Positions 34,063-49,089 of a stretch of DNA of 49,089 nt are shown here, one piece after another. This DNA comes from Candidatus Caldarchaeales archaeon. Its GTDB lineage: Archaea > Thermoproteota > Nitrososphaeria_A > Caldarchaeales > Calditenuaceae. How positions within the stretch are numbered: position 1 is the first letter of the stretch; every line of letters begins with the position of its first letter. The stretch spans positions 1-49,089 of the forward strand of contig JBCNVM010000010.1 in assembly GCA_039630085.1 (NCBI GenBank). The letters run 5' to 3'. The translations under genes and the position numbers were made by a program. The notes under the pieces are model-generated. The model saw only the letters and a list, made by a program, of their open reading frames with translations. It did no database searches and was not told the DNA's origin.

Positions 34063-35685
34063 ATGCGGGGAGAGTCGGCGCAGAGGAGGGCTATAGGGAG
34101 GGGCACGTGGATGGACATGGTCGCCCACAGGCTGGTCCAGAGGGAGCGGGAGCTCGGGAGGAGCCTGGAGCTGATCAGGACCGAGAGCGGGTTCGGGGCC
34201 AGCGGCATCCCCCACATCGGAAGCATGGCCGACGCGGTCAGGGCGTACGCGGTGACCCTGGCCCTAAGGGACATGGGGTACAGGTCGGAGCTGATCGTCT
34301 TCTGCGACGACATGGACGGCCTCAGGAAGGTCCCCGCGAACCTCCCCTCCTGGCTCAACGAGCACCTGCTCAGGCCGGTCTCCGCCGTGCCGGACCCGTT
34401 CGGGAGCTTCGGGTCCTTCGCGGAGAGGATGGGCGCGATGCTCCGGGAGGCCCTCGACGAGGCCGGGCTCGAGTACAGGTTCATGTCGGGCAGGGAGGCG
34501 TACAGGACCGGGCTGCTGAGGGAGCAGGTCAGGAAGGTCCTCTCGGAATGGCGGAGGGTCGGAGAGGTCATCAGGGAGATGACCGGTCAGGAGAAGTTCA
34601 CCAGGGTACTGCCGTACTTCCCGGTCTGCAGGGGCTGCGGCAGGATCTACACCGCCGAGGCCTACGAGTTCGACGCGGGGCGCGGCGCGGTGAGGTACAA
34701 GTGCGTCGGGGTGCAGCTGAAGTCCGGGTGGTTCGCCGGCTGCGGGCACGAGGGCGAGGCCCGGATCGACACCGACGACGGCAAGCTGGCCTGGAAGGCC
34801 GAGTTCGCGGCCAGGTGGGCGGCCCTCGACGTCAGGTTCGAGGCCTACGGGAAGGACATCGCGGACTCCGTGAAGGTGAACGACTGGGTCTCGGAGAACG
34901 TCCTCGGCCACCCGCATCCCTACCACGTGAGGTACGAGATGTTCCTCGACGCGGTCGGCAGGAAGATCTCCAAGTCGACCGGGAACGTCTTCACGCCGCA
35001 GATGTGGTACAGGTACGCCTCGCCCCCGAGCCTCACGCTCTACCTTCTCAAGAGGTCCGTGGGAACTAGGAGGATCTCGCCTTCTACTATCATCAGGATG
35101 ATGGACGAGCTCGACAAGCTGGAGGAGCTCTACTTCAGGACCAAGGGAGCGACGGACTTCAGGACGGTCAGGCTGAGGGGCCTCTACGAGCACGCCCACT
35201 TGCTAAGGCCGAGGAGCAGGCCCTCGGTCAGGGTGCCGTACAGGCTGCTGGTGGACCTCGTTTCGGTCGCTCCACCCGAGAGGAGGGAGGAGTTCGTGCT
35301 GGAGAGGCTGAGGAGGTACGGCTACGATGTCGGATCCGAGGAGGTCCGGAGGAGGATCTTGTACGCGGTGAACTACGTCGACGACTTCGGGGTCGCCGCG
35401 AGGCCCTCCAAGGTCGAGGTGCCGGAAGAGGTCATGGCCGTGATCAGGGAGGTCGCGGAGGCGGTGAGGAGGGGAGCCGGGCCGGAGGAGATACAGGGCG
35501 AGGTCTTCAACAGGTCGAGGGCTAGGGGTGTCGACCCCGCGGAGACCTTCAGGCACTTCTACAGGGTCCTGCTGAACAGGGACAGCGGCCCCCGGCTCGG
35601 CCCATACCTCTACGACCTCGGGCCGGAGAAGCTGGACGAGATCCTCTCGCGGTACGTCCGCGCCGCGGGCCAAGGAGACGGCTGA
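34063..35685 (+). CDS. lysS: Lysine--tRNA ligase, class I
   Basis: ASGIPHIGS (HIGH), DDMDGLRKVP, GKLAWKAEF, KISKS (KMSKS), GPRLG. Confidence 0.95.
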   Translation: MRGESAQRRAIGRGTWMDMVAHRLVQRERELGRSLELIRTESGFGASGIPHIGSMADAVRAYAVTLALRDMGYRSELIVFCDDMDGLRKVPANLPSWLNEHLLRPVSAVPDPFGSFGSFAERMGAMLREALDEAGLEYRFMSGREAYRTGLLREQVRKVLSEWRRVGEVIREMTGQEKFTRVLPYFPVCRGCGRIYTAEAYEFDAGRGAVRYKCVGVQLKSGWFAGCGHEGEARIDTDDGKLAWKAEFAARWAALDVRFEAYGKDIADSVKVNDWVSENVLGHPHPYHVRYEMFLDAVGRKISKSTGNVFTPQMWYRYASPPSLTLYLLKRSVGTRRISPSTIIRMMDELDKLEELYFRTKGATDFRTVRLRGLYEHAHLLRPRSRPSVRVPYRLLVDLVSVAPPERREEFVLERLRRYGYDVGSEEVRRRILYAVNYVDDFGVAARPSKVEVPEEVMAVIREVAEAVRRGAGPEEIQGEVFNRSRARGVDPAETFRHFYRVLLNRDSGPRLGPYLYDLGPEKLDEILSRYVRAAGQGDG

Positions 35686-38970: not shown

Positions 38971-40662
38971 ATGAAGGGAAGCCTAGTCCTCCTGCTGGGG
39001 ACGATGCTGGCGTTGACGGCGCTCGGTGTAGCGCACGCTGAGGTCGTTACGTTCAGGCAGAGCTTCGGCGGATCTGATCCGGAGCTTTTAGGCGGCATAG
39101 CGGTCGACGGGACCTACCTGTACGCTGTGGGGTCGACGCAGAGCTTCGGCCCCAATGCATGGAACTTCTTCCTCTCCGTCTTCAAGCTCTCAGACAACAC
39201 ATATCATTGCAGTTCAGCGGTCGACATCCAAGGCAGTCCGAGGGACCTCGCGAAGAAGGTCGTCGTCCACGCAGGCCAGGTCTATGTCGTCGGACAGACG
39301 TTCCATGGCATTAACCAACCGAACATCTTCATAGCGAAGATGGACTCTAACTGCAATCTAGCCGGACTGAAGGTCTACGACTTGGGCACAGGGGACAGTG
39401 TTGAAGGACTGGCGATAAGCGGAGAAGGTAGCTTCATCTACATAGCCGGCGCAACACAGAATGCTGCGCTGCTCATGGCCGTAAGGACGTCTGACCTCTC
39501 CGCGACATGGATCAGGGAGTTCAAGGTTGTCGGGGGAGGAGACTTCGCACAGTCCGTAGCCTTTGATGGAGGAAAGCTGTACGTGACCGGTCATACTTCT
39601 AACGGCGACCTCTTTGTGTCACGCTTCGACATCAACGGCAACCACGAGGCAACTAGGACGTTCGCGACGCCGGACTTCGAAGGGGGGAGGGACATCGTGA
39701 TATCAGGAAACAAGATCTACGTCTCAGGGACATATGCGCCCCCCGCTGGAACGAGGATGCTAATCATGAGGCTTGATCCGGGGACCCTCAACGTCGAGTG
39801 GGCTAAAGTGATCGATATGTCGCCGGGCGCGGTAGACACACGATCCGTCTCCGTTGCGGGAGGTCTCGTGTACTCTTTTGGAACAACGACACTCTTCGGC
39901 ACAGATGACGCCCTGATGGTCGCGCTCAAGGCCACCAGCACCGGCGACCTCGCCTTCATGTTTGTTGTCGCGAGGGATGCGTCTATTCAGAGGGCAATCG
40001 ATTCGGCACCTTTGGGATCCTGTGTCGTCTTCGGCGGCGACACCAATGGCTGGCCGATTTATTACGCCGTACCGGACTTCACCGTCGGATCGATAAGCTT
40101 CAGCATTTCGTCCCCGACCCTGTCGATCGCGGCTCCGTCGCCGGGCGACATCGCAGCAACTCCGGCGCTGATGCCGTTCACGCCGACCCTCAACAACCCG
40201 GGGACCGTGGATGCCTTCTACTCGAGGTTCTGTCCGGACGCGCTGACCGTCTCAACCACCGTCACCGTCACTTCTACTTCATCCACGACGACGACCCTCT
40301 CCACTACCACAACCTCGGTGGTGAAGACGACGACCACCGCCTACGACATCAGGTTGACCACCATCACTCAGACAGAGAGGACGACGCTTACCGGGACCAC
40401 CAGCGTCACGACCACCCTCACGGCCCTTACCACCACGACAAGAACGGAGTCGACGACCCTGACGCTTCAGACCACTCAAACTCTTCAGACCACGCAGACT
40501 TTCCAGACCACTCAGACGTTTCAGACCACCCAGACCTTCACCACTACTCAGGTCTTCGCGGAGCCGATCACGACATACATCATACCCGCGCTCCTCGCGG
40601 TGATAGCTGCCCTCCTCGGCGCGGCGATCGTGGTGGGCAGGAGGAGACGGTACCCGTTCTGA
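38971..40662 (+). CDS. Secreted beta-propeller-like surface protein with Thr-rich stalk and C-terminal TM anchor
   Basis: Signal peptide (AHA/E), repeated YxxGxT...D.f..K blades, Thr-rich linker, TM plus RRRR. Confidence 0.8.
   Translation: MKGSLVLLLGTMLALTALGVAHAEVVTFRQSFGGSDPELLGGIAVDGTYLYAVGSTQSFGPNAWNFFLSVFKLSDNTYHCSSAVDIQGSPRDLAKKVVVHAGQVYVVGQTFHGINQPNIFIAKMDSNCNLAGLKVYDLGTGDSVEGLAISGEGSFIYIAGATQNAALLMAVRTSDLSATWIREFKVVGGGDFAQSVAFDGGKLYVTGHTSNGDLFVSRFDINGNHEATRTFATPDFEGGRDIVISGNKIYVSGTYAPPAGTRMLIMRLDPGTLNVEWAKVIDMSPGAVDTRSVSVAGGLVYSFGTTTLFGTDDALMVALKATSTGDLAFMFVVARDASIQRAIDSAPLGSCVVFGGDTNGWPIYYAVPDFTVGSISFSISSPTLSIAAPSPGDIAATPALMPFTPTLNNPGTVDAFYSRFCPDALTVSTTVTVTSTSSTTTTLSTTTTSVVKTTTTAYDIRLTTITQTERTTLTGTTSVTTTLTALTTTTRTESTTLTLQTTQTLQTTQTFQTTQTFQTTQTFTTTQVFAEPITTYIIPALLAVIAALLGAAIVVGRRRRYPF
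40468..40557 (+). repeat. Five imperfect 18-bp tandem repeats encoding QTTQT(L/F)
   Basis: CAGACCACnCARACnYTY units; the fifth is degenerate (TTTQVF). Confidence 0.85.
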
Positions 40663-41418: not shown

Positions 41419-42438
41419 TCAGGGCCCGGTGCCGGCGGTCAGGGCGAGGATGGCGGCCCTCACGTAGAGAAGGTTCTCGGCCTGGTCGTAGATGACGCTC
41501 CTGGGGCCGTCCATGACCTCGTCGTCGGCCTCCTGGCCCCTGAAGACCGGGAGGACGTGGGTCACGATGCCGTGCCTGTCCATCAGGTCGGCGAGCTCCC
41601 TCGTCAGCCTCCAGTCTTGGTGCCTCCTGTGGAGCTCCAGCTCCCTCTCCCTCCCGAACCTGTTCAGGCCCTCGAGGACGCAGGCGTGGCTCGCCCAGCT
41701 CCTCGGGAAGACGACGTGGGCCCCCCTCAGCGCCTCCCTGGGGTCGTGGGAGACCTCTAGGGAGCCGTCGGAGTCCCTGGCGTTCTGCTCCGCGACCCTC
41801 ACCAGCCTCTCATCGAGGTCGAAGCCGGGCGGGTAGCAGAGGACCACGTCCATCCCGTAGCGGGTCGCGAGGAGCATCTCGTCCTGGACGCTCCCCCAGC
41901 TCCTTATCCGATCGCTGTAGGCCCACATGATGACGTACCTCTTACCCTCCGGCCTCCAGTTGAACCTCTCCGAGATCGTGTAGAGGTCGGCGATCGCCTG
42001 AGAGGGGTGGAACATGTCGTCGGCCATGTTGACGACCGGAATCCTCGCGTGCTCCGCGTACTCCCTCACCACCGCGTTCCCCCTTCCGTAGACGTAGTCG
42101 ACCGCGGACTCCAGTATCCTCACTCCCAGGGCGTGCCCGAACCTCTCGTACATCCTCGCCATGTCCTTGACAGACTCGCCCTCCGCGCCCCTCGTGGTCG
42201 CGAAGTCGATGAACTGCGCGTGCCCTCCCAGCATCGTAGCCGCGGCCTCGAAGCTCGCCCTCGTCCTGGTGGAGGTGTTGTAGAAGATCATGAAGAAGGT
42301 CCTGTTCTTGAAGAGCTCGGGGACGCTGCCGGCGTACCTCATCACCTTGAGCTGCCTCGCGAGGTCCATGACGGCGCCGATCTCCTCCAGGGACCAGTCC
42401 TGGCTCGAGATCAGGTCCTTGCCCTTGACCTCGATCAT
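41419..42438 (-). CDS. Ornithine/aspartate carbamoyltransferase family enzyme, atypical (AOTCase/YgeW-like)
   Basis: STRTRASF, HPSQ, WAYS, FPRSW, HVLP (for HCLP), YDQAEN. Confidence 0.85.
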   Translation of the reverse strand: MIEVKGKDLISSQDWSLEEIGAVMDLARQLKVMRYAGSVPELFKNRTFFMIFYNTSTRTRASFEAAATMLGGHAQFIDFATTRGAEGESVKDMARMYERFGHALGVRILESAVDYVYGRGNAVVREYAEHARIPVVNMADDMFHPSQAIADLYTISERFNWRPEGKRYVIMWAYSDRIRSWGSVQDEMLLATRYGMDVVLCYPPGFDLDERLVRVAEQNARDSDGSLEVSHDPREALRGAHVVFPRSWASHACVLEGLNRFGRERELELHRRHQDWRLTRELADLMDRHGIVTHVLPVFRGQEADDEVMDGPRSVIYDQAENLLYVRAAILALTAGTGP

Positions 42439-42480
42439 CAGTGCTCCTTGTCCCGTCCCGCCAATAAACCGTAGCCGGGC

Positions 42481-43893
42481 TCAGTCGGTCACCAGGACCT
42501 TCATCTCCTCCGCGATCCCCAAGAGCGTCCTCCTGACCCTCTCGACGAGGTTGTTGGGCCCCGACGCCGCCCTCCCCACGATCACGAGGTCCATGTCTCC
42601 GTAGACCTCGTCGACCGACTCGACGTCCTGCCATCCCGAGACCTCGGCGACGACCCTCGAGACGTCGGACTGGGGCCTCAGCTTGACCATGATGTAGACC
42701 TTCTCGATCCCGAAGTAGGCCCTGAGGAGGTCCTCCGGGATCCTGAGCCCGAGCACCGCCTCTAACCCCTCCCTGAGTTCCTGGAACCTGACCCTCCCTC
42801 CGTTGGCGACGTAGTGGGCCGCGACGAACTCCGCCGCCCTCCTGGCGGCCTCCTCGTCGAGCGAGGCGTTCAGCTTGGACGCGATGTCGAGGAAGACCTT
42901 GTGGCTGATGTACGGCGTCGGGGCGAGGGCGACCCCGTCGAAGTCGAACCTCAGCTTCCCAACGGGGACGTAACCGTCAGGCCTCCTGATGACCATCGAC
43001 TGGTGGACTCCGGCCCTGACCGTCCTCGACTCGGGGGCGAGCGGGTGCCTCCAGTATTGCCTGATCCCCGTGACCCTCGAGAACTCCGCGTAGGCCCAGG
43101 CCAGCCTCTCCCTCCTCACGCCGAGGTCGACGCCGTGGACGTCGTGGAGCGTCGCGACCACCTCGTAGAGGTCCGCGATCCCGTTCCTGTCGCCGATGCC
43201 GAAGAGCGTGACGTGGGCCTCCTCCGCCCCCTCCAGCACAGCGGTCACCGTGTTGGCCGAGGCCATTCCGTAGTCGTTGTGGAAGTGGCAGGCGATCGGA
43301 AGGGCCGACCTCTCCCTGCAGTACCTGACGAAGGAGGCCGCGAGGAGTGGAGTCATGAGGCCGCTGGTGTCGGGGAGGCTGACCATCGTGGCTCCCGCGC
43401 TCCGGAGGTCCTTCGTGAAGTCCAGCAGCCTGTCCAGCTCCCTGAACTGTCCCTCGACGAAGAGCCTCGAGACGTCCTCTAGCGTCGCCCTCACGTAGCC
43501 GTACCCCTGGGACCTGCAGAGCTCCGCCGCCTCGAGGAGCCTCGCCATCACCTCCTCCTCCGACATCCCCTTCAGCTTGTGCTCCCTGTGGACCCTCGAG
43601 ACCGCGACGTAGAACGCGACGCCGTCGACGTCGTACTTCGTGAAGGCCTCGATGTCCGCCCTGTAGGCCCTTCCGTGCATCACCACCTCGACTCCCCTGT
43701 CCCTCAGGAGCTCGACGACCGGCCTTACGTCGGCCTCCGTCGTCTTCGGCGGGTAGTCGACGGTCACCTCGACCCTCCTCAGCCCCAGCTCCGCGAGGAT
43801 CTCCGCGACCTTCAGCTTCCTCTCCGGGGTCAGGAACTTGAAGAGCTCGCCCTCCCTCAGCGTCGAGTCGAGCAGCGTCGGCAAGCCCCGCAC
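42481..43893 (-). CDS. Homocitrate synthase / DRE-TIM metallolyase with C-terminal RAM domain
   Basis: LDSTLREGE, LPDTSG, HFHNDYGMA.AN, GIGDRNGI, AGVHQ; C-terminal EVYGDMDLVI RAM domain. Confidence 0.8.
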   Translation of the reverse strand: MRGLPTLLDSTLREGELFKFLTPERKLKVAEILAELGLRRVEVTVDYPPKTTEADVRPVVELLRDRGVEVVMHGRAYRADIEAFTKYDVDGVAFYVAVSRVHREHKLKGMSEEEVMARLLEAAELCRSQGYGYVRATLEDVSRLFVEGQFRELDRLLDFTKDLRSAGATMVSLPDTSGLMTPLLAASFVRYCRERSALPIACHFHNDYGMASANTVTAVLEGAEEAHVTLFGIGDRNGIADLYEVVATLHDVHGVDLGVRRERLAWAYAEFSRVTGIRQYWRHPLAPESRTVRAGVHQSMVIRRPDGYVPVGKLRFDFDGVALAPTPYISHKVFLDIASKLNASLDEEAARRAAEFVAAHYVANGGRVRFQELREGLEAVLGLRIPEDLLRAYFGIEKVYIMVKLRPQSDVSRVVAEVSGWQDVESVDEVYGDMDLVIVGRAASGPNNLVERVRRTLLGIAEEMKVLVTD

Positions 43894-43950
43894 CTTTGGC
43901 GGCTCGTGTATTAGCCGACAAATCAATCTATGTTAAGACACACGTCGAAC

Positions 43951-43965
43951 GTGCAGAGTCCGCAT
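43951..43965. promoter_or_regulatory. Candidate Lrp/LysM operator GTGCAGAGTCCGCAT upstream of homocitrate synthase
   Basis: 11/15 match to the reverse complement of the 37482-37496 palindrome; just upstream of the TATA-like TTAACATA. Confidence 0.4.
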
Positions 43966-44091
43966 GGGAGCCGACGGGGCGCGATCACCCAAATATACCG
44001 GCCGGGGATGGTAGTGCGCGAAGGGCCCGTAACCGAGGTCATGGGCCAAGGGAAATCAAATAAAAATACCGGGAAGGCATGGATGGATGTA

Positions 44092-44180
44092 GGGCCTGAA
44101 GCTCTGCCAGGAAGAGCGCCCGGCCACATGGGGTGAGGCTCTTAACCGGGAGGTCCCGGGTTCAAATCCCGGCAGGCCCG
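44092..44180 (+). tRNA. tRNA-Lys(CTT) with 15-nt intron at position 30/31 (44123-44137)
   Basis: Acceptor GGGCCTG/CAGGCCC, D stem GCTC/GAGC, anticodon arm CCCGG-CT CTT AA-CCGGG after splicing, T arm CCGGG-TTCAAAT-CCCGG, G73, CCA not encoded, BHB at the intron. Confidence 0.92.
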
Positions 44181-44206
44181 CATTCCTGACAATTCAAGAT
44201 CAGGGA

Positions 44207-46210
44207 CTAGTAAACAATAATTATGGACAATCGGGAGTCGGAAAAATTCGAGGGGGGAGAGTCCGTCCTCTGAGTTCGTCTCGATTCCTCCGTTCTCATC
44301 ACCTTATCCCTAAGCTTCGCAAGCTTGCGCGGTATCACGAAGCCGACTTTGGCCGCAAACGCCCGTAGCGAGGAGTATCGAATTCGAATGCGGTAAAGGT
44401 CCTTCTTCGATATCGCTGGGTGGTCCGAGATCATCTTGACGTCGCCACCACGTCTGTGTAGATGTGGTCCAGTAGTTTCGATCTTTAACGCACTTAGCTG
44501 CTCCTGCACGAATGTAAGGATCCGGACATCAGTGTTGTAGGCCTCTACTCCCACGCTAGAGGCGCACCCCTCCGCGTCGAAGAACCCGCGGAGGAATGCT
44601 GCCCGGCAGGCGTCGTTGAATTCAACGAATGGTCTGATTTTCTCGATCTGCCTTCTAGCTACCAGCTCGTAGAGAACTCTACTGCGCACCTGTGCCCTAT
44701 ACATAACAGTTCCATTCCTCATGACCTTCTCAACTGCGGGCGCCGGTCGGCGCAAAACCATTTCTACACAGCGAGAGAATTCTTCAACAAATTCGCGATC
44801 CTTAGCGACAAGCACCAGAACGTACAGACCGTCCGCAGTCCTATACGTGTAGCCGTCGCCCATCATCACCCCGATGATATACGCGAGCTCCGGGGACGGC
44901 TCAAGTAGAACGATAGAGTCTTCTCTCCTCTCGCTTTCATTCTCCGTGTTTCTTTCAGGTTTCCTTCCAGGTTTTCTTAGACCTCTCGGCAAAGTTTCGC
45001 CCCGAAGCCATCTGTCGATAGTCGACGGGTGGAATCTCAGACCGTCCTTTGCGAGCTCCTTGGTGATCCGTCGATATCCGAGCCCCATCCGGTTGAGTTC
45101 ACGCACTCGTTTCAGGATCTCATTCTGCCGCTCTGGTGTTTCTCCCAGCATATGTTTTAACCATTTTATTAAGCTGTTTTCATGGACATGAATGCCCTCC
45201 CTTCGGAGTTCTGCGCGGATTCTATAGTACGGCAGCCCTTGCCGTCGTAGCTCAGCTGCACGATTCAGAACCCTTTCTCTGAGCTCTATGCTGTCCTTGA
45301 TGTGTTTCCACGTGTATATAGGAGGTTTAAAGACCATATCGCCGAGTATGTCGTAATCCCTGAACCAGCTCTCAAGTGTCCTTTCTGCTATGTAGATCTT
45401 TTCCTCTTCTAACTTCCTCACGATCTCGCTCAGACTGAGTCCCTGTTGTCTGTACTCCAGTGCTTTTCTTAGGATAATGTCTTTGTATGTGCGCCACATC
45501 CAGACGTACCTGTAAATGATCTCTTTAGCCTCTCTAGGTTTCACGTGTTCCGCGTTAGTGTGCTCAGGTGTCGCACTCTCGGACGGTGTCGTCGCGACGA
45601 TTTCTGCCATCTCAGCCTGATCAGGAGCAGAACTCTCGGGAGGTTCCTCGGCGATCTCGACGATTTCAGCATGTTCAGACGCTGTGATATCGGGTGGCTT
45701 AGTGACGATTTTCGTAGTTTCGCCAGCAGCAGGAGTGACCACGATACTGCTTGTCGATCGGGCCCTTGGCACCGTGACAGGGGCGGGCAGATCTCTAGGC
45801 TTGTGGTGTCCCTTGATCCAGCCCCACAGTGTTCCCCGAGGCAGTTTTATGTTAAACTTTCTCCAAATTTCGGCGATAATTTGCCGATACGTCGCCCCAT
45901 CGTCACGTAGTCGTAGGACTTCATAATAGATCTGGCACCAGAGATCCGGAGATGAGCGTGGGAATCTCGCGCCAAAGTGCTTCCGTACCCAGTTATATAT
46001 ACTCGGATACGGCAGATCAATCCCCTCCTTCAAAAGTGTCCGACGAATTTCAGCAGGCCTGTGTCCAGCCGCTGCAAGAGTCAGGACTCGTTGTTTAAGG
46101 GTCGCAGGATATGGTATTCTTCTCCCCCCTTTCGTGGAATTTCGTCGGCTCTCGTCTACCGAAAAAGGAGACGAGACCGCTGAGTCTGGACCCACCAAGC
46201 CGTCCGACAT
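44207..46210 (-). CDS. Free-standing LAGLIDADG endonuclease with five N-terminal HTH-like repeats
   Basis: Motif 1 ELAYIIGVMMGDG, motif 2 AFLRGFFDAEG. Five units with consensus V..L...G..Y..I...L...g..l...Tl..W. No Hint (intein) termini. GGAGGTGA SD. Confidence 0.85.
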   Translation of the reverse strand: MSDGLVGPDSAVSSPFSVDESRRNSTKGGRRIPYPATLKQRVLTLAAAGHRPAEIRRTLLKEGIDLPYPSIYNWVRKHFGARFPRSSPDLWCQIYYEVLRLRDDGATYRQIIAEIWRKFNIKLPRGTLWGWIKGHHKPRDLPAPVTVPRARSTSSIVVTPAAGETTKIVTKPPDITASEHAEIVEIAEEPPESSAPDQAEMAEIVATTPSESATPEHTNAEHVKPREAKEIIYRYVWMWRTYKDIILRKALEYRQQGLSLSEIVRKLEEEKIYIAERTLESWFRDYDILGDMVFKPPIYTWKHIKDSIELRERVLNRAAELRRQGLPYYRIRAELRREGIHVHENSLIKWLKHMLGETPERQNEILKRVRELNRMGLGYRRITKELAKDGLRFHPSTIDRWLRGETLPRGLRKPGRKPERNTENESERREDSIVLLEPSPELAYIIGVMMGDGYTYRTADGLYVLVLVAKDREFVEEFSRCVEMVLRRPAPAVEKVMRNGTVMYRAQVRSRVLYELVARRQIEKIRPFVEFNDACRAAFLRGFFDAEGCASSVGVEAYNTDVRILTFVQEQLSALKIETTGPHLHRRGGDVKMISDHPAISKKDLYRIRIRYSSLRAFAAKVGFVIPRKLAKLRDKVMRTEESRRTQRTDSPPSNFSDSRLSIIIVY

Positions 46211-46366
46211 CTCCTTCTCACCTCCCGGGGGGCCCGAACCTCCCTTCCCCGAGCAGGAGGAAACCCTCCCGCTAGGAGAAGAGCAGGAGGGTCCCCCTCT
46301 CGGGGGTTACATAAAAAGAGGAGGTTGGGTTTGGGGAGGTGACAGAAATCGTCGTTGGCGTTGAGG

Positions 46367-46540
46367 TCAGATGTTATCGAAGTGCCGGCGAAGACGCTTC
46401 TCGATCTCCTTGGCCCGCACCCAGACGGTCATCCCGACGGCGTCGGTCTCCTCGACCACCCTGAAGCAGGTGACCGGAAGACCGTAGAGAGCGCCTATCA
46501 GGTAGGCCGTCTGGGGCGGGCACTTCTCCCTAGGGTTCAT
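46367..46540 (-). pseudogene. Short ORF with LAGLIDADG-helix-like motif (possible endonuclease remnant)
   Basis: MNPREKCPPQTAYLIGALYGLPVTCFRVVEETDAVGMTVWVRAKEIEKRLRRHFDNI (57 aa). Confidence 0.35.
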
Positions 46541-46550
46541 GCTCCTCGGT

Positions 46551-46811
46551 TTAGATGAAGCTGATGATCAGCGGCAGCACTAGGTTGGCGAAGACCAGCG
46601 CTATTAGGCCCCCCGCCACCAGCCTCCAGCCAAGGAACTCCTGGCGGAAGCCGACGGCGATAAGGAGCCCCAGCGCGATCATCGCGACGCTCAGCACGTT
46701 GACGATCGGCACAGAAGCCTCTAAGATCGACAGTGTGATCTCCCTAACCATCTGCGAAATCTGCTGACCGACCTCTCGCGCAGTTATCAGAGCGATCAAA
46801 TACGCGAACAT
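46551..46811 (-). CDS. Small two-TM membrane protein, VirB2/TrbC pilin-like
   Basis: Amphipathic helix plus two hydrophobic helices joined by GFRQEFLGWR; GGAGGTGA SD before the ATG. Confidence 0.55.
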   Translation of the reverse strand: MFAYLIALITAREVGQQISQMVREITLSILEASVPIVNVLSVAMIALGLLIAVGFRQEFLGWRLVAGGLIALVFANLVLPLIISFI

Positions 46812-47003
46812 GGCCCTCTCACCTCCACCCCTCGCGTCAACCCGTCCGAGCCGCCTCAGCGGGACTCCCGCCGTGGCTGGGCGGGGTTGCCCTCGGCGGC
46901 CCTTCATCCGGGTTTAAGCTCCGGGGCATGGGAAATGGTGCCCCGGCCCCTGTTTAATGGGGAAAAATTTTGAGGGGTGGAGGTTCGGGGCCGTCAGGAA
47001 ACG

Positions 47004-47459
47004 TCAGGATTTCCGCGATTCCTTCTCCTTCCTCGATGCGTACTGCATCGGGTTCTTTATGTTGACAGGACACAGCCTGCCGTTCTCGACGCAGAGTCCG
47101 TGCGTTCTCATCGTCTGACACGAAGGCACGGTGTACTTCGTCCTCGATCCTCTGAGCCCTGCAATATGTTCTACCTGATACCTCGCGACCCTCTCGTCGA
47201 AGTCCGGCCTCTGCGCGTAGAGTCCGATCACCTCGTCAACCGTGTGACCGGCGTTCAGCAGGTATGCCGCGACCCATCTGGTGTCCTCAGGAGCGCGTTC
47301 GTCTATCACGCGCTCGTATTTCCACCTGTAGAGCGTCTCGAGCTCTGGACGTTCTCGGCGGATGGCGTCCTCCAAAATCGGATAGGACCTCTTGACGACA
47401 TCGACGACGTAGGCCAGGACTTCCGCGTCGGTCTCAGGTTCAAACTCAGGGGATCCCAC
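47004..47459 (-). CDS. Stand-alone DNA primase large subunit (PriL) C-terminal domain with foreign N-terminus
   Basis: AYLLNAG..VDEVI.LY..RPDFDERVARYQVEHIAGLRGSRTKY..PSC.TMRTHGLC...C...IKNP. Confidence 0.8.
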   Translation of the reverse strand: MGSPEFEPETDAEVLAYVVDVVKRSYPILEDAIRRERPELETLYRWKYERVIDERAPEDTRWVAAYLLNAGHTVDEVIGLYAQRPDFDERVARYQVEHIAGLRGSRTKYTVPSCQTMRTHGLCVENGRLCPVNIKNPMQYASRKEKESRKS

Positions 47460-47557
47460 ACCACATCACCACACCATAGTGAGTTATGGCCTACTATAAA
47501 AAGCTACGGCCACTTGTAGCTCAAATGTAATTATATCACACATTCGGGGGTATTGTG

Positions 47558-47725
47558 ATGAGCGAGCAGAGGTTAAGAAAGACCACGATCGAGATCTCCG
47601 TCAAGACCAAGGAGCGCCTCCTGCGGCTCAAAATTCATCCACGGGAGACATACGATGATGTCATAAATCGCTTGATTGAAGCCTTCGAACGGAGTCGCAA
47701 ATCTCCGCCGGCGAAATCAGCATGA
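47558..47725 (+). CDS. Small RHH/antitoxin-like DNA-binding protein (55 aa)
   Basis: MSEQRLRKTTIEISVKTKERLLRLKIHPRETYDDVINRLIE...; TATA (AATTATA) upstream; missed by the ORF track. Confidence 0.75.
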   Translation: MSEQRLRKTTIEISVKTKERLLRLKIHPRETYDDVINRLIEAFERSRKSPPAKSA

Positions 47726-47990
47726 AGGCGGAGGTATCACGTCTCCGCCGGCCTCCCGGGCGCGGTGTGCCGATCGCGAGCATAGGGACCAAGACCATGC
47801 TGAGGAACGATCTTCGGAGCTGGGAAGAATATGAGAAGAGGGAAATGTCGGCTCATTTGCCACTCTCCGGGGCGCTTCGCGACTTCTTGGAAAACGCTGT
47901 CAGGTACGCAACAGGCTGGAGAAGATCGCTAGGAGGCATATCAGTCGGTGCGCTCTTAACAGCTTAAGAATGCAGAGGTTCATTCCGTTA

Positions 47991-48242
47991 CTATGTGGCC
48001 TGAGACCAGACGCGATCGAACTCCGGCCTATACTGTGAGGCTAGGCGCTCGCCGATGAGCACGATGTTCTCGTCGTTCCTGTCCTCCGCGGAGACCGAGA
48101 AATTATAGCTACCCGTTATAACCAGCCGGCCGTCTATGACAACGAACTTGTGGTGCATGAGGTCGGAGTCGCCGTCGAGAGCCTCGGCATGAACGCGAAT
48201 ATCGGCCCCGGATGAAAAGCGTGTCGTCCCTCTGTATCGTCG
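47991..48242 (-). pseudogene. Phospholipase D-family nuclease C-terminal remnant
   Basis: ...LMHHKFVVIDGRLVITGSYNFSVSAEDRNDEN...EFDRVW: HxKxxxxD + GSxN + E. The N-terminal half is missing. Confidence 0.75.
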
Positions 48243-48497
48243 TCACGGAATTGCCACTGCACGGATTTGAACTGAACGAAGCGGGGATCTCAGGTTACGT
48301 CGTCGGGGCATTCCATTCACGTTCTCGGGGGATATCCGTTCATTAAGCCCGAACATCGCCTCCGCCTTGATGAAGTCCCTGACAGCCATCCTGATAGCCT
48401 CGGATCTGTTCATATAGCGTCCGGCCTCGACCAGAGAGTCGATCGCCTCGAGATATGCATCAGGCATGTGAACGGCAACCACCCGCACCGTTATCAC
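48243..48497 (-). CDS. Ribbon-helix-helix (CopG/NikR-like) transcriptional regulator
   Basis: VVAVHMP..YLEAIDSLVEAGRYMNRSEAIRMAVRDF. Confidence 0.85.
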   Translation of the reverse strand: MITVRVVAVHMPDAYLEAIDSLVEAGRYMNRSEAIRMAVRDFIKAEAMFGLNERISPENVNGMPRRRNLRSPLRSVQIRAVAIP

Positions 48498-48639
48498 CTC
48501 GGAGGGTTCTGGAAGGGTGAATTAGATAAACATCCTGAGGGTCGGCTTGAATATGATGGGCGGGTTTGCATTTGATCTAGACATCTAATCCCTTTCGTGA
48601 GGGATTGTATTTAAGCTCAGTTAAACCCCCTCAATACGT

Positions 48640-48756
48640 CTAAAAAAGAAGTATCTTCTCACTGAAGGGCGGGGAAGAGGCGAGGCTGATGAAGACTAAA
48701 GCCGCGAGCGCGACCGAGGACGCAGTGCCCAGCGACTGCCTCCAGTTCAAGGCCAT
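48640..48756 (-). pseudogene. Truncated membrane gene following nuoJ (probable NuoJ C-terminal half)
   Basis: MALNWRQSLGTASSVALAALVFISLASSPPF, then AT-rich sequence and a stop; overlaps the nuoJ stop. Confidence 0.4.
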
Positions 48757-49007
48757 CACACCGTCTCGTCCTTCCTCCTGGTGAACATGAGCACGACCAT
48801 CAGCAGGGCCACAGCTCCCCCGGAGTAGGCGAGTATCTGGAAGAGCCCGACGAGGTGGGCGCCCATGACTACGAAGAGCAGTCCCAGTGAGGCCGTGAAG
48901 ACGAGAAACCAGAGCGCGGTCCTGACGAGGCTTCTGGTCTCGATGGACATGATCGCCGAGAGCGTCGCGAGCAGCAGAAGGGCGGCCTCGAGCAGTCCCG
49001 CGTCCAT
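48756..49007 (-). CDS. nuoJ: NADH-quinone oxidoreductase subunit J (N-terminal split form)
   Basis: LVRTALWF...LFVVMGAHLVGLFQILAYSGGAVALL. Confidence 0.78.
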   Translation of the reverse strand: MDAGLLEAALLLLATLSAIMSIETRSLVRTALWFLVFTASLGLLFVVMGAHLVGLFQILAYSGGAVALLMVVLMFTRRKDETV

Positions 49008-49089
49008 CGGGGACACTCACCCCCAGCCACAATTTTAGGTCTCCCGGCGAGCCTCGTTAGCCAAACCAATAAGGCCCCGGGAAGCCCTG

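Follow-up and report, generated by a model that had tools for sequence, protein, structure and literature searches.

A tRNA-Lys(CUU) gene with A8 and U14, beside a LAGLIDADG gene on an insert that splits the resident tRNA-Lys(CUU) gene of a Caldarchaeales archaeon

The window analyzed here is a 49,089-nucleotide stretch of the genome of a Candidatus Caldarchaeales archaeon (assembly GCA_039630085.1, contig JBCNVM010000010.1, labelled C2). The genome, labelled G000, comprises 1.41 Mb in 66 contigs with 64% G+C and a completeness of 89.9%. Toward its right end, the window carries a complete tRNA-Lys(CUU) gene with A at position 8 and U at position 14 in place of the usual U8 and A14. This gene, which we call the spare, lies downstream of the first few nucleotides of a canonical tRNA-Lys(CUU) gene, the resident or old gene, and stands tail to tail with P0001, a gene for a predicted LAGLIDADG nuclease. 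For comparison, we used the two closest relatives, G003 and G006, whose neighboring HMGL-like proteins are 93% and 83% identical, respectively, to that of the window, and a congener, G001. Features of the locus are collected in Table 1, in which positions without a contig label are those of the window.

The spare consists of exon 1 (44092-44122), a 15-nt bulge-helix-bulge (BHB) intron (44123-44137), and exon 2 (44138-44180), with the anticodon CTT at 44141-44143 and the discriminator base G at 44180. Its 5′ letters are GGGCCTG (44092-44098), A (44099, position 8), A (44100), GCTC (44101-44104), and T (44105, position 14); the D loop reads TGCCAGGAA and is followed by GAGC as the 3′ D-stem strand. 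The gene thus lacks the U8/A14 signature of the tRNA family but retains the other conserved positions (G10, G15/C48, G18G19, A21, U33, purine 37 [A37], G53, T54 T55 C56, A58, and C61); pairing is complete in the acceptor, D, anticodon, and T stems, and both direct reading and the Rfam alignment give the T loop as TTCAAAT. Rfam model RF00005 covers the gene from end to end (47.6 bits versus a gathering score of 29; model positions 1-71). With introns allowed, ARAGORN called Lys(ctt) with a 15-nt intron, and its default setting without introns produced a miscall, Val(cac).

A scan placed a strict BHB motif (hBHBh′) in only one register, with cuts after nucleotides 31 and 46 of the pre-tRNA (44122/44123 and 44137/44138; tRNA 30/31). 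In that register, the motif is made up of an outer helix of 4 bp, a CG/G bulge, a central helix with 4 of 4 bp, an AG/G bulge, and an inner helix of 2 bp. Two other registers checked by hand form a poor motif, and the strict register yields the same mature RNA, a predicted tRNA of 74 nt with the anticodon loop CUCUUAA. The original prediction had placed A8 and T14 at these two positions and had described the stems, G15:C48, G18G19, the T loop, and the BHB as intact; direct reading of the letters agrees on every count and adds that the BHB is strict in a single register. A minimum-energy fold draws U14-A21 as a fifth Watson-Crick pair of the D stem (window 44101-44117), which may be an alternative to a reversed 8:14 pair in the folded RNA.

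G003 and G006 carry a canonical U8:A14 tRNA-Lys(CUU) gene at the syntenic site beside the HMGL-like gene. In a three-way alignment, homology with these relatives runs through the promoter block and the first 9 nt of the resident gene and stops at 44031; the following stretch (44032-44091) has no homology to the empty sites of G003 and G006 and no second copy in its own genome. The gene resumes at the start of another contig, C14, which opens with TTTG followed by CGTAGCTC and contains the resident gene from position 6 on (CGTAGCTCAG..., C14:5-101), with its own 28-nt intron after position 43. In G003, the unbroken contig C7 aligns with C14:9279-5 (91.4%) and then with C2:44031-39487 (89.6%). 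Because G003 aligns across both contigs and 4 of its nucleotides fall in both alignments, the insert lies between positions 9 and 10 of the resident tRNA-Lys(CUU) gene, with CGTA (positions 6 to 9) at both junctions. A stump was left behind the host promoter, and the remainder of the gene was displaced to the start of C14. Right after the variant tRNA, G+C drops from about 0.65 to 0.49-0.58. When reassembled, the old exons are identical at 74/74 positions to the intron-less gene of G001, and we therefore conclude that the insertion is recent.

Two public runs, X1 and X2, from two samples of one study labelled hot springs metagenome, cover the locus, and X1 may be the source sample of the window. 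A 16,887-nt Logan contig of X1 spans 42000-44279 and leads unbroken from host DNA into the tRNA, with four other letters, none within the tRNA. A 374-nt contig of X2 spans 44073-44446 with no differing letters, and no contig of either run differs at 44099 or 44105. Since the contigs of both runs carry the same tRNA letters, an assembly slip, the first concern raised by the original prediction, is ruled out. Depth in X1 is 15.5 over the host flank versus 15.1 over the cassette, and no empty-site allele was found among the loose contig ends listed.

P0001 combines N-terminal helix-turn-helix (HTH) module repeats (430 residues) with a C-terminal LAGLIDADG domain, the last 230 residues matching Pfam LAGLIDADG_3 (PF14528; E = 6.4e-13). 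Among PDB entries, phmmer matched it to I-DmoI (E = 3.5e-6), the LAGLIDADG endonuclease of the Desulfurococcus mobilis 23S rRNA intron (PDB 1b24, 2vs7, and 5ak9), and its motifs GVMMGDG (D452) and GFFDAEG (E547) align to GDG and AEG. Based on these two motifs, each with an acidic end residue, P0001 is a predicted nuclease, probably with the monomeric two-motif fold of I-DmoI; D452 aligns with D21 and E547 with E117, residues that we take to be catalytic in I-DmoI. Unlike I-DmoI, which is intron-encoded and about 190 aa long, P0001 is a free-standing open reading frame (ORF) with some 430 extra N-terminal HTH residues, and identity between the two is low. It has no surrounding host protein and lies within neither a self-splicing intron nor an intein. 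Searches of Pfam, PHROGs, and NCBIfam found no resolvase, recombinase, or transposase catalytic domain in P0001. Its HTH parts match IS481, IS3, IS66, and IS6 transposase models far below the cut-offs, and a 4-bp duplication is present at the junctions. An assignment to the large serine recombinases was rejected, as PF07508 reached 26 bits on the HTH-like part with no stretch passing alone. A scan of seven ORFs between 44.2 and 49.0 kb found no tyrosine integrase or recombinase domain, and in place of attachment (attL/attR) repeats of at least 8 bp, the junctions have 4 bp, CGTA.

The LAGLIDADG family is widespread: of 76 genomes of the class (here the whole order), 45 contain matches, up to 21 per genome, many of which carry stop codons or sit at contig ends. 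A tRNA gene lies within 400 nt in 12 of 20 fetched family loci, in 11 of them tail to tail at 29 to 187 nt. Without the window locus, 11 of 19 (among L095 to L113) have a tRNA gene at no more than 400 nt, in nearly every case in a tail-to-tail orientation. By our estimate, a density of about 45 tRNA genes in 1.4 Mb would give a few per cent by chance. Three loci of relatives, L097 (Pro), L108 (Thr), and L112 (Gly), share the order tRNA, LAGLIDADG gene, and displaced old 3′ piece, and each displaced piece belongs to the same tRNA but has a different T stem. In L108, the distance from the tRNA to the displaced piece is about 1.3 kb, mostly filled by the LAGLIDADG frame (363 aa). None of 93 pattern matches to P0001 in metagenome contigs was confirmed, and a literature search yielded no report that connects LAGLIDADG genes with tRNA genes of archaea.

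The arrangement of a host promoter followed by an old 5′ piece, a spacer containing a TATA-like box, and a complete tRNA is also present at three other places in the same genome: C1:110870-111058 (Val[CAC]), C15:1409-1700 on the minus strand (Gly), and C43:1-158 (Gly). Their old 5′ pieces measure about 50, 31 to 36, and 33 nt, respectively, and all three spares keep T8 and A14. Because the layout recurs in the genome and in the loci of relatives, we regard the spare tRNA-Lys as one of a series.

The U8-A14 pair is reported to be conserved (Randau et al. 2009, as cited in the available text of PMC4117946), and a tabulation of positions 8 and 14 supports the rarity claimed for the variant. In its own genome, 42 of 43 tRNA hits (41 from Rfam and 2 from ARAGORN only, with C14:5-95, which is clipped by the contig start, read by shifting) have T8 and A14, and the sole A8/T14 gene is that at 44092-44180. 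Among relatives, T8/A14 occurs in all 56 distinct ARAGORN tRNAs from 57 fetched loci, which were chosen for other reasons and are not a random sample. When the variant tRNA was compared with 61 genomes by BLAST, its 5′ half had no relative closer than Lys(UUU) genes at 72 to 76%. The pattern GGGCCNGAAGCTCTNNNNGGNNGAGC matched 55 stretches of genome contigs, none of them tRNA-like; a similar pattern matched 6 stretches of metagenome contigs, again none tRNA-like, and a 21-mer of the variant had no match in viral contigs. Because the acceptor and D stems are fixed in these patterns, they would overlook A8:U14 tRNAs with a different sequence. A loose pattern (A8/T14 plus a GCTC D stem) applied across the class, which is not a census of all its tRNAs, matched at the rate of the reversed control, and none of 30 fetched loci (of 242 matches) held a tRNA.

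A departure from U at position 8 of an archaeal tRNA gene has a parallel in Methanopyrus kandleri, whose tRNAs reportedly have C8 repaired by C-to-U editing; here, position 14 is altered as well. To our knowledge, there is no A-to-U editing activity. For this reason, and because position 14 is also changed, the RNA most likely keeps A8 and U14. A literature search found no natural A8:U14 tRNA, but it cannot match the spelling "A8:U14" and missed a paper bearing it (PMC6614811); we therefore make no claim that natural A8:U14 is unreported.

The spare and the old gene differ at 10 of 74 exon positions (6, 8, 14, 20, 27, 43, 49, 57, 65, and 67; standard numbering). Eight of these differences form four pairs, all of which are still pairable: C6-G67 became U6-A67, G27.U43 became C27-G43, G49-C65 became C49-G65, and U8:A14 became A8:U14. 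The remaining two fall at the variable D-loop position 20 and at purine 57. Because the differences preserve pairings, we conclude that the gene was kept foldable by selection and is not decaying. The original prediction of a functional alternative core rather than decay therefore stands in part: the four kept pairs and the strict BHB argue against random decay, but the gene is not the organism's own tRNA changed in place.

A search of the genome with a Lys(CTT) anticodon-arm pattern returned two tRNA genes, the spare and the split one, and no third, and the spare is the only intact Lys(CUU) gene assembled. By a crude count over 1,210 long open frames, AAG makes up 9,981 of 10,864 Lys codons (about 92%). 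The class I lysyl-tRNA synthetase (LysRS) noted near 34 kb is real (34063-35685; PF01921; E = 2e-102); the phylum listed most often for the clusters nearest to it is Nitrososphaerota, a tentative pointer to affiliation. A second, canonical tRNA-Lys(CTT) gene had been named beforehand as evidence against the variant. Such a gene does exist in the genome, but it is exactly the one split by the insert, and for that reason its presence favors, rather than opposes, use of the variant.

Based on these observations, we think it somewhat probable that the spare is a complete replacement carried on the leading edge of a mobile insert and now supplies tRNA-Lys(CUU), with its LAGLIDADG neighbor opening target tRNA genes. 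The spare has its own TATA-like box in addition to a strict BHB, preserved pairings, and every conserved position other than 8 and 14. It would serve a genome in which AAG accounts for about 92% of Lys codons. P0001 would cut the intact tRNA genes of cells without the cassette, and repair would copy the cassette in, while the spare would make the insertion harmless, as self-splicing does for an intron. The LAGLIDADG gene occupies the place held by the integrase in classical elements. LAGLIDADG enzymes have long targets and leave 4-nt 3′ overhangs, a length equal to that of the junction repeat. The repeat, seen in the Lys case only, may be the scar of a first, nonhomologous insertion.

The spare differs from the split gene at two of the four junction bases (6 and 8) and at 14, and three speculative routes could lead to A8:U14. 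Positions 6 and 8, which lie within the 4-bp junction, may have changed to escape cutting, with 67 and 14 compensating. Alternatively, the 8:14 pair could have drifted across a bad intermediate while the element-borne copy was redundant beside a whole host gene. As a further possibility, U14 may pair with A21 in a 5-bp D stem, with A8 docking otherwise. Taken to its furthest point, the reading we favor would describe a natural archaeal cleave-and-rescue element, in which a nuclease destroys the main tRNA-Lys gene and carries an uncuttable, recoded spare with a rebuilt, working core. Recoding of the cut site at positions 6 to 9 would then have forced the change from U8:A14 to A8:U14 (or to A8 plus U14-A21 as a fifth D-stem pair). 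We consider this stronger proposal doubtful.

Several points weigh against a working spare on a LAGLIDADG-driven insert. The A8:U14 variant was seen in one population only, and an intact tRNA-Lys(UUU) (C14:9148-9240) could decode AAG through wobble pairing, which would make a working spare unnecessary. The insert's right end is known for 4 nt only (C14:1-4); among the contig ends of the genome, none overlaps the end of C2 or the start of C14, and none resembles a new 5′ part. The unseen part of the insert could hold a recombinase or integrase. C2 past about 46.5 kb consists of multicopy repeats and ends in DNA of another host locus. Immunity through changes at the junction faces two further difficulties. 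Five intact tRNA genes of the genome are identical to the split gene over positions 1 to 16 (GGGCCCGTAGCTCAGC), a stretch that contains CGTA. The target must therefore extend to flanks or later positions, and if flanks define the target, A8 is not needed for immunity. In addition, the ten differences are spread along the whole tRNA and are not bunched at the junction. The old gene might also have been mended at the right end by a new 5′ part and an intron, by analogy with the tRNA-Thr of Candidatus Caldiarchaeum subterraneum as described in the available text of PMC3293823.

Published experiments count on the same side, as far as the available text of each paper goes. In Streptomyces coelicolor tRNA-Leu, the A14U/U8A change left 7.9% and 1% of the wild-type kcat/Km and gave no rescue in vivo (PMC6614811), and U8A-A14U failed to restore methylation by TrmK (PMC9801127). 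In yeast SUP4oc, A8-G14 alone worked, and eight other 8-14 substitutions were dead, A8-U14 by implication among them (PMC4117946). In those systems, leucyl-tRNA synthetase and TrmK read A14 itself, so the outcome with LysRS may be different, although by analogy these failures would still lower the prior for a working A8:U14. Engineered A8:U14 tRNAs were thus inactive in three systems, whereas the natural spare bears marks of selection.

These points bear on an alternative that we consider unlikely, namely, that the spare is a nonfunctional passenger, whether it lost its activity or never had any in this host. Its A8:U14 core would then fail to fold or to be charged, and AAG would be read by tRNA-Lys(UUU) or by a mended old gene. 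Many bacteria manage with Lys(UUU) alone. Consistent with such a passenger, tRNA-Lys(UUU) is intact, the right end of the insert is unseen, and the published U8A/A14U swaps fail (PMC6614811, PMC9801127, and, by implication, PMC4117946). The undecayed old exons, with their 74/74 match to G001, point the same way, because an event so recent leaves little time for selection in this host. However, 8 of the 10 differences keep four pairs, no conserved position but 8 and 14 is touched, and the gene retains a strict BHB and its own TATA-like box in a genome that relies on AAG for 92% of its Lys codons. The equal X1 depth of flank and cassette and the lack of an empty-site allele among the loose ends listed also argue against a nonworking passenger. 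About as improbable, or slightly more so, is an integrase-driven virus or plasmid that used the 5′ end of tRNA-Lys, with the LAGLIDADG gene as a bystander or second parasite and A8:U14 as a hitch-hiking peculiarity of the donor. Archaeal elements often enter tRNA genes and occasionally their 5′ part, with att sites as short as 8 bp in Thaumarchaeota (available text of PMC6563490), and a similar insertion in Caldiarchaeum was interpreted as pNOB8-type (PMC3293823, likewise). The low-GC stretch here does hold other small genes, including a ribbon-helix-helix (RHH) regulator, and part of the element is unseen. Yet a scan of the seven ORFs between 44.2 and 49.0 kb found no integrase or recombinase catalytic domain, and the junctions share 4 bp only. 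What classical elements bring is a matching part of a tRNA, whereas the spare is complete, 86% identical, and equipped with a promoter of its own, and an LAGLIDADG bystander fits poorly with a family found beside a tRNA in 11 of 19 other loci and filling most of the roughly 1.3-kb insert of L108.

The original prediction took the variant for the organism's own chromosomal tRNA-Lys(CUU), whose core evolved A8:U14 in place, and the site itself, syntenic with tRNA-Lys(CUU) beside the HMGL-like gene, is the expected one. We now find this very improbable. The first 9 nt of the resident gene persist 61 nt upstream and are followed by foreign DNA, G+C falls at the tRNA, and the rest of the resident gene is present at C14:5-101, contiguous with the stump in G003. 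To revive evolution in place, C2 would have to be chimeric at 44031/44032, and the 16.9-kb X1 contig across that point argues otherwise. The same contig, leading from host DNA through the tRNA, and the agreement of two runs on the tRNA letters make a sequencing or assembly error, or a contig that mixes strains, the least credible explanation of all. The 66-contig assembly does break at tRNA genes, and C2 past 46.5 kb is doubtful, but two reciprocal errors together with six helix-preserving ones would be unlike errors.

If a spare supplying tRNA-Lys(CUU) from a mobile insert is correct, its logic resembles that of synthetic cleave-and-rescue drives, which are man-made, eukaryotic, and Cas9-based and in which a nuclease aimed at a needed gene travels with an uncuttable recoded copy. 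The likeness is one of logic, in which physical linkage is seen here and every other step would have to follow. Intronless homing requires a carrier copy that is resistant to cutting and is accompanied by co-conversion of flanking markers. Free-standing homing endonucleases of this kind include the Seg and Mob enzymes of phage T4, with SegB lying within the T4 tRNA cluster (available text of PMC2988022, PMC2790892, and PMC13096335). As in those cases, the nuclease gene here sits outside any intron or intein beside its presumed target gene. The phage enzymes are GIY-YIG or HNH nucleases and replace an allele, whereas here an archaeal LAGLIDADG protein is involved, the target is split, and a second complete copy is present.

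The closest precedent is from Candidatus Caldiarchaeum subterraneum, in which a 5′ fragment (positions 1 to 27) of tRNA-Thr(GGU) is followed by a 1,868-bp insertion and a complete tRNA-Thr (Sugahara et al. 2012, PLoS One, PMC3293823). As the available text of that paper describes it, the insertion contains an 813-bp ORF, "b," with seven paralogues and of no known family, and a pNOB8-type integrase was proposed. The old pieces overlap at positions 25 to 27, an extra intron came with the insert, and later recombination between copies scattered pieces. Both cases, as far as that account goes, share a 5′ stump left behind, a multicopy insertion whose ORF adjoins a complete tRNA, an overlap of a few nucleotides (25 to 27 there, 6 to 9 here), the dispersal of tRNA pieces through later recombination, and a gained intron. 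In Caldiarchaeum, as described there, the insert gives a new 5′ part fused to the old 3′ part; here, the insert contributes an entire second tRNA gene preceded by a box of its own, and within the reach of contig C14, the old 3′ part lacks a 5′ strand. The neighbor here is an I-DmoI-like LAGLIDADG gene rather than a proposed pNOB8-type integrase, and the available text reports no core change like A8:U14. Tyrosine-integrase elements of the SSV and pNOB8 types (Krupovic et al. 2019, PMC6563490) are described in the accessible part of that review as sharing 8 to 69 bp of identity with the target, mostly its 3′ part. Like them, to the extent covered there, the present element inserts in a tRNA gene, replaces the displaced part, leaves a tRNA piece at the far end, and has a putative mobility gene beside the tRNA; unlike them, it shares 4 bp, shows no visible integrase, and brings a complete, diverged gene as the replacement.

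Both tRNA-targeting inserts and free-standing homing endonucleases are already known kinds. New to the finding itself is the setting, a spare tRNA on a LAGLIDADG-linked insert that split the resident gene at the very positions that differ. Few features of tRNA are as constant as the U8:A14 pair, and engineered A8:U14 swaps failed in the systems in which they were tried. The copy described here is a natural swap; it carries marks of selection and is apparently the only intact gene for the tRNA reading 92% of Lys codons. If the spare works, the tRNA core can be rebuilt, and the locus offers a natural test case; should the doubtful cleave-and-rescue proposal hold, this would be the first natural elongator tRNA shown to tolerate A8:U14. 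The insert also gives the tRNA oddity a concrete cause: linked to a LAGLIDADG gene, it splits tRNA genes and supplies a replacement. Insertions of the kind suggested in 2012 to have given rise to tRNA fragments, extra introns, and split tRNAs in Caldiarchaeum can now be connected with a protein family. Under the cleave-and-rescue proposal, cassettes of this family would be a main cause of fragmented tRNA genes, newly gained introns, and split tRNAs in the class. If the nuclease targets the intact gene, the cassette would be a natural counterpart of engineered cleave-and-rescue drives.

Table 1. Features of the tRNA-Lys(CUU) insert and related loci in the same genome (window positions unless a contig is given)
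Feature	Position	Strand	Evidence or remarks
Putative TATA-like box of the resident tRNA-Lys(CUU) promoter (host)	43990..43997	+	Found by eye; 26-33 nt before 44023, in a block conserved with G003/G006
Resident gene stump, positions 1-9 (GGGCCCGTA)	44023..44031	+	Last 4 nt, CGTA, repeated at C14:5-8
First 60 nt of the insert, with a putative A/T-rich TATA-like box at about 44057-44067	44032..44091	+	Box found by eye, 25-35 nt before the spare
Spare tRNA-Lys(CUU) with A8 (44099), U14 (44105), and U6:A67 (44097:44174)	44092..44180	+	Rfam, ARAGORN, BHB scan, contigs of two runs
P0001, 667 aa, tail to tail with the spare tRNA, 26 nt away	44207..46210	-	N-terminal HTH repeats and C-terminal two-motif LAGLIDADG domain
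Low-GC run of multicopy mobile pieces, including an RHH gene	46211..48661	.	GC 0.49-0.62 versus about 0.65 in the host
RHH protein, 84 aa	48243-48497	-	RHH_1, E = 2.5e-8
Host-like gene end	48662..49089	-	93% identical to G003:C6:3245-3665; 73-80% to four other congeners
Further LAGLIDADG-family loci	C5:1525-2331, C5:7146-7946, C64:22185-22847, C24:130-837, C33:39-521		
Orphan tRNA pieces	C10:14248-14271, C24:70-96, C56:81593-81622, C56:67244-67277, C64:19729-19747, C1:584-631		Low-GC DNA adjoining each
Intron-sharing tRNAs	C1:31709-31806, C1:113588-113685, C12:14811-14906, C14:5-101		

To the right of P0001, contig C2 is secure up to 46508, where X1 contigs cover it at a depth of about 15; beyond that point, the Logan contigs are short, and depths range from 4 to 139. 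The mobile pieces between 46211 and 48661 are 72 to 81% like several other places in the same genome and in all six congeners, and they may not all belong to the same insert. The RHH protein encoded in this run resembles, below threshold, CdrS and aCcr1, which are archaeal cell-cycle regulators, as well as ParD antitoxins. At about 48662, homology to a gene end in G003 sets in abruptly, and its counterpart there does not adjoin tRNA-Lys. The last ~430 bp of C2 thus reflect a rearrangement between copies of the element or else a join made through repeats during assembly. Elsewhere in the window, a 563-aa ORF on the plus strand (38971-40662) has no Pfam match; G+C dips there to 0.56-0.60, and it may be another foreign piece.

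Broken tRNA genes occur elsewhere in the genome. Orphan pieces at five places, with low-GC DNA before them, are the 3′ ends of Gly, Leu, and Ala genes, and another is the 5′ half of a tRNA-Trp gene including the start of its intron, which adjoins an 80% copy of window 46759-47165. Contigs C8, C28, C14, and C2 are collinear in G003 (C7:46000-62000; L150), and each contig break falls at a tRNA gene. The G003 cluster across those breaks runs tRNA-Gln, tRNA-Pro(GGG), and tRNA-Lys(UUU) through to tRNA-Lys(CUU), and at the place of tRNA-Pro(GGG), a decayed remnant is present at C28:191-217.

Four tRNA genes, for Ala (TGC), Asn (GTT), Met (CAT), and the old Lys (CTT), have related introns at one shared place after the anticodon stem that start with TGGCGGG and end with CGCCCGGGAG, as if one intron had spread between them. 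A further tRNA-like sequence (C10:620-692, minus strand; 39.3 bits) has a normal 5′ half and a 3′ end without a recognizable T loop, and it may be another broken or rebuilt tRNA gene.

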